Shown one piece after another: positions 57,264 through 64,000 of a DNA stretch of 64,000 bases (position 1 is the first letter of the stretch; each line of letters starts with the position of its first letter). The stretch is from IMG/VR virus record IMGVR_UViG_2675903278_000002. One strand, given 5' to 3'. The stretch is from a virus. Lineage: Duplodnaviria > Heunggongvirae > Uroviricota > Caudoviricetes. The notes under the pieces were generated by a model. That model was given only the letters and a program-made list of their open reading frames with translations, did not search any database and was not told the DNA's origin. A program made the translations under genes and the position numbers.

Positions 57264-57280
57264 ACAAGGATTTTTTGAAC

Positions 57281-60200
57281 ATGGAACAGTTCAAGAAGAA
57301 AAAGCTACCGCTGTTTATTGCCGGTGCGGGTGGTAAAAAAAGCAGCAAAAGCTCCAGCCGTACACCGGTTGAAGCCGACGATACCGTAAATTCTCGTGCA
57401 ATGGCCGCTATCCTCGATCTTCTTGGGGAAGGGGTAATTGGCGGCTTAGTAAATGGCGCAAGATCTATTTTTATCGACGATCTGCCGATTGTAAATGAAG
57501 ACGGTTCCTCCAACTTCAGCGGAATCACATGGGATTTTCGCGACGGTTCACAAGACCAGACTCCAATGTCTGGCTTTGATTTCGTTGAAACGCCTAAATC
57601 CGTCAATATCCAGTTAAAAAAAACACATTATGTAACGGTTTCAATCGATAACGATGAAGCTGATCGGGTTCGTGTCATCATGAAGTTTCCTTCTTTGCGA
57701 AGCATAGATAAAAAAACTGGTGACACGAACGGTACGACTGTTGAGTACAAGTTCCAGATAGCAAATGGCGACTCAACATTTGTAGATGTGGTCGCTGAAG
57801 GTGAAAAAAGCGTTGGCATTAAGCTAACAGCAAAGAAGACCGGCGTTTATTACCGTAGCTATGAGCTGAAGCTGCCTAAGCCTGGACGAGCATACAAGGT
57901 TCGTGTGGTCCGTATTACCGATGATAACAGTAGCCAGTATCTCTATAACGATACATGGGTGGATTCAATCGGGGAAATTGTCGATACACCGATGAACTAT
58001 CCAAACTCTGTTTTGGTTGGATTGAAGGTAAACTCTGAGCAATTCGGCAGCACCATGCCATCTCGCTCTTATCTGGTGCGTGGCCTAAAAATTCGAGTAC
58101 CTTCAAACTATAACGAGTCCAGTAACACTTACGCTGGGGTATGGGATGGCACTTTTAAGCTGTTGTCTTCTTCGAACCCCGCGTGGATTCTCTTTGATTT
58201 GCTGACCAATGCTCGATATGGCCTTGGTCAGTATGTGTCGGAATCTATGATTGACCTTGGCCAGTTGTACCAGATTGGTCGATATTGTGACGAAGAGGTC
58301 GATGATGGCTTTGGTGGCAAAGAGAAACGCTTTGCAATCAATACGCAGATCACCAGTCGACAGGACGCATACCGGCTAATTCAGGATATTGCCGGAGCAT
58401 TCCGCGGCATGGTGTTTTGGGCTGGTGGGATGGTTAACATCATGCAGGATAGCCCATCAGATCCGGTAATGATGTTTACCAACTCTAACGTCAAAGATGG
58501 ATTGTTTACCTATAAAGGTTCTGCGCGTAAAGATCGCCCATCCGTTGCGCTCGTAACCTACAACAACAAGGAGGACGGTTATAAGCAAAACATCGAGTAC
58601 GTCGAAGATCAGGACGCAATGCGCCGTTATGGTGAGCGTAAAACAGAAGTCGTAGCATTTGGCTGTACAAGCCGAGGGCAGGCTCACCGAGTTGGTTTGT
58701 GGCTTTTATATACCGCCAGAATGGAGTCGGATGTAATTACATTTACTGCCGGCTTAGACGCGTCATTTCTGATGCCTGGTGAAACCGTTCTGATTCAGAA
58801 CAAATATCGCGCAGGCAAACGTAACTCAGGTCGAATTGTGGCGTTTACCAAAAACAGCGTCACACTCGATGCGCCTGTGTCGTTAGCCAAAGGCGGCTGC
58901 TTTATTCGAATACTGAATCAGGAAGGCAAAATCGTTGAACGCGATGTTCTTGAAACTGGCGAAAATATAACAAAAGTTACGTTTTCAAAAGCCCTGTCTT
59001 CGGCTGAAACGCCTGTTTTGAACGGCGTCTGGACTATTACAGAACCAGACCTCGAACCTATGCGCGTTCGCATCGTTAACATCGCGCAGGGGGAAACGCC
59101 GGGTAGCTTTGACATCACCGCTGTTGAGAACAATCCGTCTAAATATGAGGCAATCGACAATGGTGCAACGCTGATCCCGCAGAATACGACGGTATTGGAC
59201 CCAACTTACTCCAAGCCATCTAATTTGCAAATCACTGAAGGGACTTATCTCTCAAGCCCGGGCAACCTGTCAGTAAAACTGACTGCAACATGGGAAGGGA
59301 AATCTCCAGAGTATTGGATCAGTTGGCGACGTTCTGATGAAAACAATGTATCGAACTGGCAATCGGCGCGTGTAACCGAAGAGCAATACGAAATCGTTAA
59401 TGTCGCGGAGAATGGACGCTACGACTTCCAGCTGTATGCGGTTTCATTCAACGGTAAAAAAACAGAGATTATCAGTGCCGTTTATCAGGTGTTGGGCACA
59501 ATGACACCGCCGGATTCCCCAACGTCATTAACGGCCGTTGGAGACTATCGTAATGTGATACTGAATTGGGTTAATCCAGATTCGGTAGACCTTGATCACA
59601 TTAATGTTTACGCATCCCAGACCAACAATCTGGATACGGCGAAACTGATCGCAGAGTCTGCAAGCACCACCTTTACACATGCTGGTCTTGGGGATAGCGA
59701 AACGTGGTATTACTGGGTTCGAGCATCGAACAAGCGAGGTATGTTAAGTCCTCCGAACTCAAACTTGGGTACAGAGGCGACAACTCGCGATGTACTGTCG
59801 TTCCTGACTGGCAAAATTACATCTTCCGAGCTTGGTCAGGCTCTGCTTGAGGACATCAACAGCAAAGCCTCTCAAGAAGCAGTTGACGAGTTAAATGAGC
59901 ATATCAACCAGAGCGTCGAATCTTTGGAGGGGGCGGTAAACGACGTTAAGGAAGATATAGCTGAATTAGATCAGCAGTTCAGCGATAACCTCGCGGATTT
60001 TGAAATAAAATTCAACGAGCGTAGCGATGCTTTGGAGAACGCACAAACCGAGCTTAAAGGTGAGGTTTCGGCAACGATCGACAAGGTCAATGAAGCGTTT
60101 GAAAAAATTGATGCTACTGATGCTGCAATTGTTGAAATCGAAAACACCGTATCTGAACACGATAAAGCTCTCGCTAATACAGTCGAGGCAATAAAGGCTG

Positions 60201-62008
60201 CAAGAGATGAAGCGGCGGCTCTTATTGCTAAGGAAAGCGAGGCTCGTGTTGAAGGCGATGCTGCAAACGCTAAACAACTGGAAGTGTTGCAGTCAACGGT
60301 AGAGGAAAGCTCCGCTGCCGTTGAAGAAATGAAAAAGACGGTTGCAGAGGTCGATCGTGCCAGTGCAGAACTGACTACGAACATTGAGGCGTTAGCCAAA
60401 ACAAATATTGACCTGGCTCTTCGTCAAGATGAAGACCAGCACAAGCAGATGGTCAATAACGCGAAGATCGCAACAACACAGAAAACCTTTGCTGATGATA
60501 TGTCTGCAATGGCCACGAAGGTTGAGGAAATTCGCGTAGAAATTGGCGAAGACATTAAGGCCAGTATTCTGGAAGAGTCCACCGCTCGTGCCGATGGCGA
60601 TGAAGCGTTGGCAAAGCGTGTCACTCAGCTGCAATCTAAGTTTGAAGGAGATATCAGCGCGGCGATTAGTACAGAGCAGGAGGCTCGTACATCTGCCGAT
60701 GAAGCTCTGACGACACAGATCACTCAGCTTGAGTCGAAAGTAAGCAACGATATCGTCGCAGCTATTAAGGAAGAGCAAGAAGCCCGAGCAACGGAAGATT
60801 CGGCTCTGGCAAGCCAGATCACCCAACTTCAGGCAAAGGTTGATGATGATATTTCTGCTGCAATACGTAGTGAGCAGGAGGCCCGAGCAAGCGGGGACTC
60901 TGCGTTAGCCAAACAAATAAACCAGCTTCAGTCAAAGGTTGACGGTGATATATCCGCTGCCATCACTCAGGAGCAGGAGGCCAGAGCAAGTGCTGACCAG
61001 GCGCTCTCACGAGAAATTAACAGCCTGCGAGCACAAACCGGAACTGATATTGCCGCAGCGGTTGCTGTAGAGACAAAAGCAAGGACTGATGCCGATAGTG
61101 CATTGTCTACCCAGATTACGTCTCTTACAGCAAAAGCTAATGATCTCGAGGCGTCTCTTGCCAGAGAAACAACGGCTCGTGCAGATGGTGATACCGCTTT
61201 AACAAAAGAGGTTTCAAGTTTAAAAGCACAGACAGCGAAAGATATTAGTGCGGCCGTTGCAGTTGAAACGCAGGCTCGAACTGATGCTGACTCGGCGTTG
61301 TCGTCTCAGATCACCAAGCTGACCTCTCAATACAAAGAGGATATTAAAGCGGCTGTAGCAACCGAAACGAAAACGCGTACAGAGCAAGATGCTGCATTGG
61401 CGACTCAAATCACAAACTTAGAGTCTCAAACGGCAGCCAACATTTCCGCGGCGGTAACAACTGAAACGACAGCGAGAACGCAGGCAGATAATGCTCTGAG
61501 TGGGCGAATCGATACTCTGAAAGCAGAGGTGGATGGAAATACCGCGACAATTCAACAGCAGGCAACAGCTATTGCTGATACCAACAAAAAAGTATCAACC
61601 GCGTGGACGTTGAAAATGGAGACTTCAACGAGCGGAGGGCAGAAGTATGTTGCCGGTATTGCGCTTGGTATTGACACCACTGGGCTATCTCAGTTTTTGG
61701 TTCAGGCGGACAGGTTTGGTTTGGTCAACTCTGTTAACGGGAAGATCACAACGCCATTTGTTATCGAAAACAGTATCGCCTATATGAATGGAGCGTATAT
61801 CAAGGATGGCACAATCACCAATGCAAAAGTAGGCGATCTGCAATCTACCAATTTTGTTAGCGGTAGATCTGGATGGCGGTTCGGCAAAAATGGAACGCTT
61901 GAGATCAACGGTAATAGCGGCGGCAATGGGCGATTGGTTATAAATGGTCAGCGGATTGACGTTTATGACGATAACAACGTCCTACGAGTAAGAATTGGCC
62001 GTCTGTGA
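57281..62008 (+). CDS. central tail fibre / host specificity protein (lambda gpJ-like) with internal tandem-repeat array
   Basis: ~1575 aa; YPNSVLVGLKVNSEQFG, AFGCTSRGQAHRVGLWLLYT, GQKYVAGIALGI, GRLVINGQRIDVYDD follow lambda J order; ~0.55 kb-equivalent run of ~33-aa helical repeats inserted before the C-terminal domain. Confidence 0.9.
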   Translation: MEQFKKKKLPLFIAGAGGKKSSKSSSRTPVEADDTVNSRAMAAILDLLGEGVIGGLVNGARSIFIDDLPIVNEDGSSNFSGITWDFRDGSQDQTPMSGFDFVETPKSVNIQLKKTHYVTVSIDNDEADRVRVIMKFPSLRSIDKKTGDTNGTTVEYKFQIANGDSTFVDVVAEGEKSVGIKLTAKKTGVYYRSYELKLPKPGRAYKVRVVRITDDNSSQYLYNDTWVDSIGEIVDTPMNYPNSVLVGLKVNSEQFGSTMPSRSYLVRGLKIRVPSNYNESSNTYAGVWDGTFKLLSSSNPAWILFDLLTNARYGLGQYVSESMIDLGQLYQIGRYCDEEVDDGFGGKEKRFAINTQITSRQDAYRLIQDIAGAFRGMVFWAGGMVNIMQDSPSDPVMMFTNSNVKDGLFTYKGSARKDRPSVALVTYNNKEDGYKQNIEYVEDQDAMRRYGERKTEVVAFGCTSRGQAHRVGLWLLYTARMESDVITFTAGLDASFLMPGETVLIQNKYRAGKRNSGRIVAFTKNSVTLDAPVSLAKGGCFIRILNQEGKIVERDVLETGENITKVTFSKALSSAETPVLNGVWTITEPDLEPMRVRIVNIAQGETPGSFDITAVENNPSKYEAIDNGATLIPQNTTVLDPTYSKPSNLQITEGTYLSSPGNLSVKLTATWEGKSPEYWISWRRSDENNVSNWQSARVTEEQYEIVNVAENGRYDFQLYAVSFNGKKTEIISAVYQVLGTMTPPDSPTSLTAVGDYRNVILNWVNPDSVDLDHINVYASQTNNLDTAKLIAESASTTFTHAGLGDSETWYYWVRASNKRGMLSPPNSNLGTEATTRDVLSFLTGKITSSELGQALLEDINSKASQEAVDELNEHINQSVESLEGAVNDVKEDIAELDQQFSDNLADFEIKFNERSDALENAQTELKGEVSATIDKVNEAFEKIDATDAAIVEIENTVSEHDKALANTVEAIKAARDEAAALIAKESEARVEGDAANAKQLEVLQSTVEESSAAVEEMKKTVAEVDRASAELTTNIEALAKTNIDLALRQDEDQHKQMVNNAKIATTQKTFADDMSAMATKVEEIRVEIGEDIKASILEESTARADGDEALAKRVTQLQSKFEGDISAAISTEQEARTSADEALTTQITQLESKVSNDIVAAIKEEQEARATEDSALASQITQLQAKVDDDISAAIRSEQEARASGDSALAKQINQLQSKVDGDISAAITQEQEARASADQALSREINSLRAQTGTDIAAAVAVETKARTDADSALSTQITSLTAKANDLEASLARETTARADGDTALTKEVSSLKAQTAKDISAAVAVETQARTDADSALSSQITKLTSQYKEDIKAAVATETKTRTEQDAALATQITNLESQTAANISAAVTTETTARTQADNALSGRIDTLKAEVDGNTATIQQQATAIADTNKKVSTAWTLKMETSTSGGQKYVAGIALGIDTTGLSQFLVQADRFGLVNSVNGKITTPFVIENSIAYMNGAYIKDGTITNAKVGDLQSTNFVSGRSGWRFGKNGTLEINGNSGGNGRLVINGQRIDVYDDNNVLRVRIGRL
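60500..61600 (+). repeat. in-frame tandem repeat array (~99-nt period) inside the J-like gene
   Basis: At least ten consecutive units of pattern DIxAAIxxEQEARxxADxALxxQITQLxSKV; boundaries approximate. Confidence 0.75.
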
Positions 62009-62101: not shown

Positions 62102-64000
62102 ATGTGGTACAGGGAAGGTACTATCACATTTACACAGGGTAGCAATACTCTGGTTGGGGCAGGGACAGCCTGGAACGTAACAGCTAATGGTGTGTTGCCG
62201 GGGATGATCGTCATTGGCCCCGACAATAAGCTGTATGAGATCAAGCGCGTAATAAGCGATACGAATATTGTTCTCTCAGAACCTTATACCGGCGAAACTC
62301 AGTCTGAGGTTCCGTGCCGAATCATTACGACCTATGAAGGCGACTTAACACAGTTTAGCGCGCGCTTTACAGCACTAATGTCGCGTATGTCGGCTGATTC
62401 CAAGTCTATGCGCAGTTGGTTGACTGCTCTGGATGAGGTGACAATCGAGCGTGAAGACGGTACAGAAGTAACCGTTAAGCCGCTAATGCAGATCGTCAAC
62501 GAGCACAACGAAAACGTTGAGTGGTATAAAAATAACACTGACGCGATTGATGCTGCTGGCGACAAAGCTCGTGAGGCGGCGGCCAGTGCTGCCGCAGCAG
62601 CAGAAAGCGCCAATACCGCTGGAGAAAAAGCCTCTCAAGCGTCTCAAAGTGCATCCGCTGCGGCATCCTCACAAAGTGCCGCAAGTGCGAGTGCAACTGC
62701 TGCGAAAAAATCTGAAACGAATGCCGCAGCGTCACAACAATCAGCAGCCACTTCTGCATCCACCGCGACCACGAAAGCGTCAGAAGCTGCCACCTCAGCC
62801 CGGGATGCGGCGGCCTCAAAAGAGGCAGCGAAATCATCAGAAACGAACGCATCCTTGAGCGCCAGTAGCGCAGCTTCCTCGGCAACGGCGGCAGGAAATT
62901 CCGCGAAGGCGGCAAAAACGTCCGAGACGAACGCCAGGTCTTCTGAGACGGCAGCGGGACAGAGCGCCTCAGCTGCGGCAGGCTCAAAAACAGCGGCTGC
63001 GTCGTCTGCCAGTGCCGCGTCAACAAGTGCCGGGCAGGCCTCAGCCAGTGCCACCGCCGCCGGAAAATCGGCAGAAAGTGCCGCATCGTCTGCTTCAACA
63101 GCCACAACGAAGGCTGGCGAAGCCACTGAACAGGCCAGCGCAGCAGCGAGGTCTGCTTCCGCAGCGAAGACATCCGAAACGAACGCGAAAGCGTCGGAAA
63201 CCAGCGCAGAATCATCAAAAACGGCTGCCGCATCGTCCGCCAGTTCGGCGGCGTCATCGGCATCATCTGCGTCTGCTTCAAAAGATGAGGCGACCAGACA
63301 GGCGTCAGCAGCGAAGGGCAGTGCCACGACGGCATCCACGAAAGCAACAGAGGCGGCAGGCAGTGCGACGGCAGCATCTCAGAGCAAAACTACTGCTGAA
63401 TCCGCTGCGACCCGTGCGGAAGCTGCTGCTGATCGTGCTGAAGAGATTGCCGGTGCAGTTGCGATGGAAGACGCAAGCCTTACAACTAAAGGTGTTGTGA
63501 AACTTAGCAGTGCTGTTGATAGCACCAGTGAATCGCTGGCCGCAACGCCAAAAGCAGTTAAAGCAGCCAATGACAATGCGAATAGCAGGGTGCCATCTAA
63601 CCGAAAAGTTAACGGAAAAGCATTGACTGCGGATATAACATTAACGCCGAAAGATATTGGTACTTTAAATTCAGTAACGATGTCTTTCTCTGGCGGGGCT
63701 GGGTGGTTCAAACTGGCTACGGTTACCATGCCACAAGCGAGTTCCATCGTTTACATCGCATTGATTGGTGGCGCTGGTTACAACGTCGGTTCCCCACATC
63801 AGGCAGGCATTTCAGAACTGGTTCTACGAGCAGGCAATGGAAACCCCAAAGGAATTACCGGGGCTTTGTGGAAGCGTACAGCCGTCGGATTAACGAATTT
63901 CGCCTGGATCAACACATCCGGCGATACATATGATATTTACGTTGAGATTGGCAATTATGCGACGAGTGTAAATATCCATTGGGATTGTACTGCAAATGCG
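62102..64000 (+). CDS. side tail fibre protein, 3' end outside window
   Basis: ATG after AGGAG; frame open to window end so absent from track; Ala/Ser-rich repeats (SETNA...SASAA) then conserved fibre block KGVVKLSSAVDSTSESLAATPKAVKAAND; track ORFs here are other frames. Confidence 0.85.
   Translation, partial: MWYREGTITFTQGSNTLVGAGTAWNVTANGVLPGMIVIGPDNKLYEIKRVISDTNIVLSEPYTGETQSEVPCRIITTYEGDLTQFSARFTALMSRMSADSKSMRSWLTALDEVTIEREDGTEVTVKPLMQIVNEHNENVEWYKNNTDAIDAAGDKAREAAASAAAAAESANTAGEKASQASQSASAAASSQSAASASATAAKKSETNAAASQQSAATSASTATTKASEAATSARDAAASKEAAKSSETNASLSASSAASSATAAGNSAKAAKTSETNARSSETAAGQSASAAAGSKTAAASSASAASTSAGQASASATAAGKSAESAASSASTATTKAGEATEQASAAARSASAAKTSETNAKASETSAESSKTAAASSASSAASSASSASASKDEATRQASAAKGSATTASTKATEAAGSATAASQSKTTAESAATRAEAAADRAEEIAGAVAMEDASLTTKGVVKLSSAVDSTSESLAATPKAVKAANDNANSRVPSNRKVNGKALTADITLTPKDIGTLNSVTMSFSGGAGWFKLATVTMPQASSIVYIALIGGAGYNVGSPHQAGISELVLRAGNGNPKGITGALWKRTAVGLTNFAWINTSGDTYDIYVEIGNYATSVNIHWDCTANA

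Follow-up and report, generated by a model that had tools for sequence, protein, structure and literature searches.

What does a tandem array of ten 33-residue units do in the middle of a phage tail fibre, and what follows from a change in their number? The question is raised by IMG/VR record IMGVR_UViG_2675903278_000002, a virus of the Caudoviricetes of which one stretch of 64,000 nucleotides, called the window throughout, was analysed and which, judged by its sequence, is an SSU5-like phage-plasmid. The array lies inside a homologue of the lambda central fibre protein J, here called the J-like protein. As argued below, it is very probably the coiled-coil shaft of a central fibre of the type found in F-type pyocins and phage T1. 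The full reading goes further, in that this coiled-coil shaft would refold into a beta-prism on infection, and we put its probability at roughly 0.55.

The repeat array and the shaft it belongs to

A preliminary description of this DNA had placed a tandem array of about 33 amino acids (aa) at nucleotides (nt) 59880–61600. The array is real in the protein, where repeat counting gives ten units: over aa 1091–1419 the self-identity at an offset of 33 residues is 0.486, against 0.099 ± 0.016 in shuffled sequences (z = 23.7), and the units score 46–60 bits each against the ten-unit profile. Its true span is narrower, however, namely 60551–61537, and the first ~670 nt of the range proposed earlier encode a sequence that is helical but lacks the 33-residue period. 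These nucleotides fall in the proximal shaft (aa 862–1090, 229 aa), in which the offset-33 identity is 0.107 (z = 1.0), a profile scan recovers one degenerate unit only (aa 980–1008), and the first ~50 aa are variable, with insertions and deletions among relatives. The regular units start at nt 60551, 60650, 60749, 60848, 60947, 61046, 61142, 61241, 61340, and 61439, and all are 33 aa long except that starting at nt 61046, which has 32. Their consensus is DISAAIxxETxARAxADxALxxQITxLxSKxxx, with columns A4, E9, R13, D17, A19, L20, and L27 free of variation. No Pfam family covers the 33-aa unit, and PHROGs offers only generic "tail fiber protein" families. The ten units make up the distal two-thirds of an alpha-helical shaft of ~556 residues.

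The position of this shaft is defined by alignment to lambda J (phmmer against PDB chains). Residues 3–837 of lambda J align to aa 19–861 (E = 3e-124) and residues 839–971 to aa 1418–1547, so that the ~556 inserted residues (aa 862–1417) separate two neighbours in the lambda chain; they directly follow the second FNIII domain and precede the central straight fibre. The N-terminal block is also homologous to residues 7–843 of the F2-pyocin fibre and 8–853 of T1 gp33, and the Pfam domains follow the same plan: FNIII-A_GpJ (1.5e-29), Phage-tail_3 (7e-34), and fn3, then Phage_Tail_Tip / DUF1983 (PF09327; aa 1423–1557, E = 1.4e-41). Thus, the earlier proposal that this is a homologue of J, conserved in its N-terminal blocks and extended by a long helical insertion relative to lambda, holds, the insertion being placed exactly between residues 837 and 839 and predicted as helix by AlphaFold2 (AF2). 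The protein has the hub, FNIII domains, and central straight fibre of the gpJ / TipJ family and, between its last FNIII domain and a beta-prism fibre domain, the stretch of helix that is typical of F-type pyocins and T1.

The same alignment changes the reading of the C-terminal end, which had been described as receptor binding. What follows the array is instead the central-straight-fibre domain, whose beta part matches the lambda central fibre (8xcj, E = 1.4e-6) and the SU10 tip fibre in a Foldseek search of the alignment-based AF2 model, which recovered no domains but these. No alignment to the receptor-binding domain of lambda (J ~972–1132) was found by phmmer past lambda J 971, and the J-like protein stops 28 aa beyond that match, so that the LamB-binding domain of lambda is without a counterpart and the region after the repeats should not be annotated as receptor-binding. 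The fibre domain with its tip aligns to T1 gp33 986–1168 and DEV gp56 367–427, and in the last 63 residues the resemblance is to the C-terminal tips of these two proteins, DEV gp56 being a fibre reported to recruit receptor-binding proteins that are encoded separately (PMC12892993). The interval from the J stop (62008) to the start of the side fibre gene (62102) contains no open reading frame (ORF). The receptor-binding function is probably located elsewhere, either on the side fibre or on a separately encoded tip protein. Within the family this C-terminal tip is modular: in the window it is short and of the T1 gp33 / DEV gp56 type (aa 1513–1575, nt 61817–62005), and four relatives (L030, L035, L037, and L054) extend C-terminally by another 112–156 residues, which include a lambda-like segment, EFNN.T.RG, and an additional domain.

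Composition and prediction agree on the helical nature of the insert, which contains neither Pro nor Trp and is acidic, with a net charge of −22 in the array and −31 in the proximal shaft. Hydrophobicity has a period of 3.65 in the array (33/9, i.e., nine core positions per 33 residues), where a strong 16.5-residue period is present as well, and 3.56 in the proximal shaft; these values and the lack of Pro are compatible with a parallel three-stranded coiled coil. From the single sequence, AF2 gives long helices over aa 865–1439 with breaks at about aa 1039–1064. A second run, with a 111-sequence alignment, was made expressly to see whether the repeats turn to beta structure, and it returned a continuous helix over aa 1190–1383 (block means of pLDDT, the predicted value of the local distance difference test, 71–93), a stretch of low confidence at aa 1379–1407 (pLDDT < 50), and beta strands from aa 1409. 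In this model the last half-unit (aa 1409–1417) is predicted as a strand running into the beta domain (pLDDT ~75), and resembles the published "seed" strands.

One segment of the proximal shaft, aa 1031–1085, differs from its surroundings because its column conservation over 29 distinct relatives (0.90–0.97) equals that of the hub region, and it overlaps the helix breaks of the single-sequence AF2 model. In the F2-pyocin fibre, a kink at G955 anchors the side fibres (PMC13455828). On the strength of that parallel, the conservation, and the helix breaks, this segment is a candidate kink or docking site for side fibres.

Kinship with pyocin shafts and a possible change of fold

The homology of the shaft extends beyond its general architecture. 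Residues 882–1193 of the F2-pyocin central fibre (25vf) align to aa 1240–1547 (phmmer, E = 1.1e-24), and residues 890–1168 of T1 gp33 (9l9p), which has 33-aa repeats of its own, align as far as the C-terminus (E = 5e-30). The shaft of F-type pyocins is a three-stranded coiled coil that docks side fibres at a kink (PMC13455828; bioRxiv 10.64898/2026.02.24.707460), and in the F7 pyocin 163 shaft residues become a beta-prism of triangular form on contact with the cell (He et al. 2026, PMC12874032). Replacement of the small prism-corner residues by Gln abolishes killing, with assembly unaffected, and the strands carry a motif, SxSxxMxxLxS, whose orientation follows the strand direction and in which a Glu or Asp at M pairs with an Arg four residues off (PMC12874032).

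Scanning the array for this motif in both orientations gave 26 hits, against 4.8 ± 2.2 in shuffles that preserve composition, none of which (0/2000) reached 26. In all ten units, the reverse form SxLxxMxxSxS occupies positions 4–14 and the forward form SxSxxMxxLxS positions 19–29, and the matching pattern A4.I6..E9..A12.A14 / A19.A21..I24..L27.A29 recurs in a consensus built from 111 diverse homologues. The scan was calibrated on F2 in a slightly relaxed form, with Gly allowed at S and Thr at M. F2 carries the residues cited in the papers at 11/11 positions checked (A987, A995, A998, V1010, A1011, A1017, E1039, and R1043 from the F7 paper; G955, L1050, and I1054 from the F2/PAO1 papers), which means that the two numberings concur in this region. 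The deleterious sites A987, A995, V1010, and A1017 fall on S positions and the neutral controls A998 and A1011 off them, and the motifs alternate between forward (F) and reverse (R) as F985, R1002, F1017, R1034, F1049, and R1066, repeating every 32 residues. In the window's last unit, E9 and R13 lie opposite F2 E1039 and R1043 when aligned by phmmer. From this calibration and the homology we infer that each 33-aa unit consists of one forward and one reverse motif, which would form a hairpin if a prism forms; this suggests two strands per ~32 residues. Two marks of the fold-switching family are present in the J-like protein, namely homology to the last ~400 residues of the pyocin fibre and an alternating motif, with E9, R13, and D17 invariant.

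On these grounds, the mechanism that we favor would run as follows. The shaft, which has the last FNIII domain on one side and the central-straight-fibre beta domain on the other, as in the F-type pyocin / T1 architecture, would in the virion be a coiled coil of three parallel chains, in which every 33 residues provide nine core positions, at ~3.67 residues per turn. At ~4.9 nm per unit, the coil may hold the fibre tip ~80 nm off the tail cone, and its negative charge may make it a platform for the side fibres. If the coiled coil is metastable, as homology to the F7 pyocin suggests, contact with the receptor would convert it to a triangular beta-prism, to which each 33-aa unit would contribute one antiparallel strand pair. 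Such refolding would make the fibre shorter, open up the tip of the tail, and free the tape-measure protein, and the number of units (3–10 in the phage-plasmid family) would set both reach and stroke.

A more specific version, which we regard as unlikely, treats the 33-residue unit as the module of a fold-switching spring, with one beta-hairpin per unit and a length of ~4.9 nm as coil versus ~1 nm as prism. Were it correct, copy number would set the reach, the stroke (~40 nm for ten units), and the energy stored at the tail tip, and the SSU5-like group, with its 3, 4, 5, 6, 9, and 10 units, would make up a series of natural alleles adjusted to how thick the surface layer of the host is. This modular spring was not found in the literature searched.

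The main rival to a fold switch is a static stalk, a stable coiled-coil spacer that places the tip or the side fibres past the surface polysaccharide and does not refold, the tip opening as in lambda or T5. We give this alternative a minority but real chance. It agrees with every structure prediction made here, as all of them keep the repeats helical, and with the fact that unit number differs with the host (5 in Salmonella SSU5 and in Kluyvera, 6 in Yersinia pestis, 9–10 in E. coli), which fits a tuning of length; moreover, the 2908-aa insert of coil and globular segments at the identical site in Klebsiella relatives, described below, resembles a reach and binding module rather than a spring. 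What speaks against a static stalk is the conservation of six small-residue positions per unit, kept in 10/10 units and in the family consensus, at the very places that match prism-corner positions of the F7 pyocin shown to be critical by experiment, in a shaft homologous to one shown to switch (PMC12874032).

The refolding of the shaft has several points to its debit. The AF2 monomer kept the repeats helical, with no beta-prism, even with the 111-sequence alignment, and for this reason the fold switch is to be regarded as supported but unproven. Lambda and T5 do not use the switch according to He et al., and SSU5 is not mentioned among the 24 phages for which these authors predicted it (PMC12874032). 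A switch of 556 residues would have 3.4 times the size of the one observed. Furthermore, the packing of a trimeric coiled coil can by itself explain small residues beside core positions, and the 26 motif hits are not independent, because the units are repeats, and the motif is degenerate. The tail of phage Cyrano measures 259 ± 12 nm, whereas its tape measure predicts 230 nm (PMC9928086), and a long central fibre may add to this excess, an observation that is only loosely suggestive.

Copy number and stability of the units

The preliminary description had also proposed that the array is a hotspot for recombination or slippage that would affect host range, and that, if it were an artefact of assembly, long reads would reveal its collapse or expansion. 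At the DNA level, neither Tandem Repeats Finder (TRF) nor direct-repeat searches detect a 99-nt array. The units share on average 52% of their nucleotides (maximum 66%), the longest exact run in common is 12 nt, and only 34% of the residues identical between units use the same codon; with units only 52% identical in nucleotides, slippage is implausible. Of 5426 complete E. coli genomes, 165 carry a 2145-nt segment of the locus at full length and in colinear order, in each case on a plasmid, and 111 of these copies are at least 99% identical. Because copy number is fixed in these 165 independent plasmids, the array is no hotspot on short time scales.

A single pair of genomes departs from this constancy. 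CP054387 and PV340561 differ by two substitutions and by exactly one 33-aa (99-nt) unit, with the crossover within the 11-nt run GCTGCTATTAA, which shows the loss of a unit through microhomology recombination. Of the hotspot proposal, therefore, one recombination event survives, and neither slippage nor frequent change does. A contingency locus, in which slippage or recombination often changes the copy number and thereby diversifies host range, could draw on this recent in-frame deletion between two otherwise near-identical phages and on the unequal copy numbers among relatives; its units, however, would be expected to be near-identical in DNA, and those of the window are not, apart from the pair just named copy number is constant among near-identical genomes, and the units at either end of the array can be matched as conserved orthologues throughout the family. 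We therefore consider such a locus very improbable, and its slippage version is largely refuted. We infer that units are rarely gained or lost, and by recombination at short homologies rather than by slippage. The suspicion that the repeats were expanded or collapsed in assembly can be practically dismissed, because the array is colinear in complete plasmids and its units are too diverged for mis-assembly; in addition, a protein of the same 1575 aa, identical or near-identical, is found in Cyrano, in 17 fetched loci, and in more than 100 complete genomes.

Across longer distances the copy number does change, as had been anticipated. Since a homologue search with the C-terminal 485 aa gave only fragments or proteins of at most 850 aa, counts were made on 91 loci drawn from IMG/VR, GTDB genomes, and GenBank phages, which encode 49 distinct complete J proteins. 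Among these, the insert measures 292, 332, 368–369, 409, 518, 551, or 558 aa, and contains 3, 4, 5, 6, 9, or 10 regular units. The proximal shaft and the first and last units are conserved among relatives, and the internal units vary in presence. The unit itself is widespread: the ten-unit profile, run against 1.84 billion proteins, retrieved 2030 representatives at E ≤ 1e-3, 968 at ≤ 1e-10, and 189 at ≤ 1e-30, the top match being a J-like protein of 2138 aa. Among the best 150 matches most have 6–10 units and some up to 20–24, so that ten units are not exceptional.

Three relatives deserve separate mention. Yersinia pestis NCTC5923 (108-kb, plasmid-sized contig, L086) has an orthologous J of 1543 aa with six regular units and a longer C-terminal domain. 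In Klebsiella SSU5-like phage-plasmids (L091, PQ492289.1, 321–12452; L092, CP058330.1, 5412 onward), J reaches 4044 aa, with the same N-terminal 860 aa and Phage_Tail_Tip domain, and with an insert at the identical site in which coiled-coil segments are interleaved with about ten globular domains of ~130 aa, almost none known to Pfam, that look like carbohydrate-binding modules. The third case is E. coli strain 3385 (NZ_CP029421.1, 24831–28228), where the IS3-like element ISEc52 interrupts this part of the J gene, and for this reason the phage-plasmid is probably tail-defective.

Genome context and comparison with known fibres

The J gene region is 99.3% identical to that of Escherichia phage Cyrano (pLF82) and 98.1% to that of phage CMS-2020a, and the DNA-level match to Salmonella phage SSU5 is confined to its first 62%. 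The ORF spans 57275–62008, and the start used, ATG 57281, is that of Cyrano CYRAN_20; PHROGs assigns the product to phrog_31, "central tail fiber J". Upstream lie genes for the tape measure and homologues of M, L, K, and I, and downstream that of a side tail fibre, an order that matches the annotations of Cyrano, PhiR41_1, and SSU5 and is the one in which genes of the gpJ / TipJ family are found. The side tail fibre, a possible partner of the J shaft, begins with an N-terminal domain of ~150 aa, followed by long Ala/Ser-rich repeats (SETNAAASQQSAATSAS...), which may resemble those of lambda Stf. The features are collected in the table.

Table. Parts of the J-like fibre gene and its downstream neighbor, with coordinates in the 64,000-nt window
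Feature	Position (nt)	Strand	Evidence
J-like central tail fibre gene (1575 aa plus stop)	57281..62008	+	ORF list, translation, Pfam, phrog_31, CYRAN_20
Hub and FNIII part (aa 19–861)	57335..59863	+	phmmer vs PDB chains, E = 3e-124 to 3e-154
Proximal shaft (aa 862–1090), irregular helical coiled coil (predicted)	59864..60550	+	composition, AF2 helix, offset-33 z = 1.0
Conserved shaft segment (aa 1031–1085, TNIEALAKTNIDLALRQDEDQHKQMVNNAKIATTQKTFADDMSAMATKVEEIR)	60371..60535	+	column conservation; AF2 helix breaks
Regular array, ten 33-aa units (aa 1091–1419)	60551..61537	+	offset identity, profile scores, AF2, motif phases
Central-straight-fibre beta domain (aa 1420–1575) with T1 gp33 / DEV gp56-type tip	61538..62005	+	Pfam, phmmer, Foldseek, AF2 strands
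Side tail fibre gene, start (continues past the window end)	62102..64000	+	translation; Cyrano CYRAN_21 "tail fiber protein"

Literature searches turned up nothing specific on a 33-residue repeat or on repeat-number variation in J proteins, or on the function of J in SSU5. The shaft as such is a known feature of this fibre family, and the J-like protein of the window is a long and unusually regular form of it; what is new and of use here is the modularity of the 33-residue unit together with the natural series of copy numbers. The family is common and clinically relevant, as it includes phage-plasmids of E. coli, Salmonella, and Klebsiella, and because close relatives differ by whole units, the relation of shaft length to reach, stroke, and host range, as well as the switch itself, can be tested in real phages.

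Among known systems, the F-type pyocin fibre (PyoF10 / PA0641; 25vf; the F7 central fibre) offers a close parallel. It shares with the J-like protein the order of hub, FNIII domains, alpha-helical shaft, and beta-prism fibre, an acidic shaft, the absence of a fused receptor-binding domain, and the alternating SxSxxMxxLxS motifs with their ~32–33-residue period and Glu-Arg pair, and the homology (E = 1.1e-24) spans the last shaft units and the beta domain. However, its shaft has ~163–180 aa versus ~556 aa here, and its units are degenerate, whereas the distal 329 aa of the window shaft are ten clearly recognisable units. Pyocins are tailocins, while the window belongs to a DNA-containing temperate phage-plasmid whose fibre is a putative fold switcher, and the gene for the pyocin tip adhesin (PA0642 / PyoF11-12) has no equivalent between the J gene and the side fibre gene of the window.

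T1 gp33 (9l9p; PMC11945409) and the J-like proteins of Drexlerviridae have 33-aa repeats of the same family (DIQASLTDIREVIATETEALSREIDQLKAQIGD), and the tip of gp33, ending in ...LRVQIGRL, aligns to the last residue with that of the window, ...LRVRIGRL. They differ in that gp33 has only ~3–4 units and a 352-aa C-terminal part that cryo-electron microscopy did not resolve, and in that T1-like phages encode a separate receptor-binding protein beside J. Lambda gpJ (8iyk, 8xcj) shares the hub/FNIII part, the central straight fibre, and the M-L-K-I-J gene order, but it has no shaft and carries the C-terminal LamB-binding domain that the window protein lacks. J of SSU5 (SSU5_020) and those of other SSU5-like phage-plasmids are products of orthologous genes and have the proximal shaft and the first and last units in common with the window; SSU5 J, at 1385 aa, has 5 regular units, and the other relatives have 3, 4, 6, or 9.

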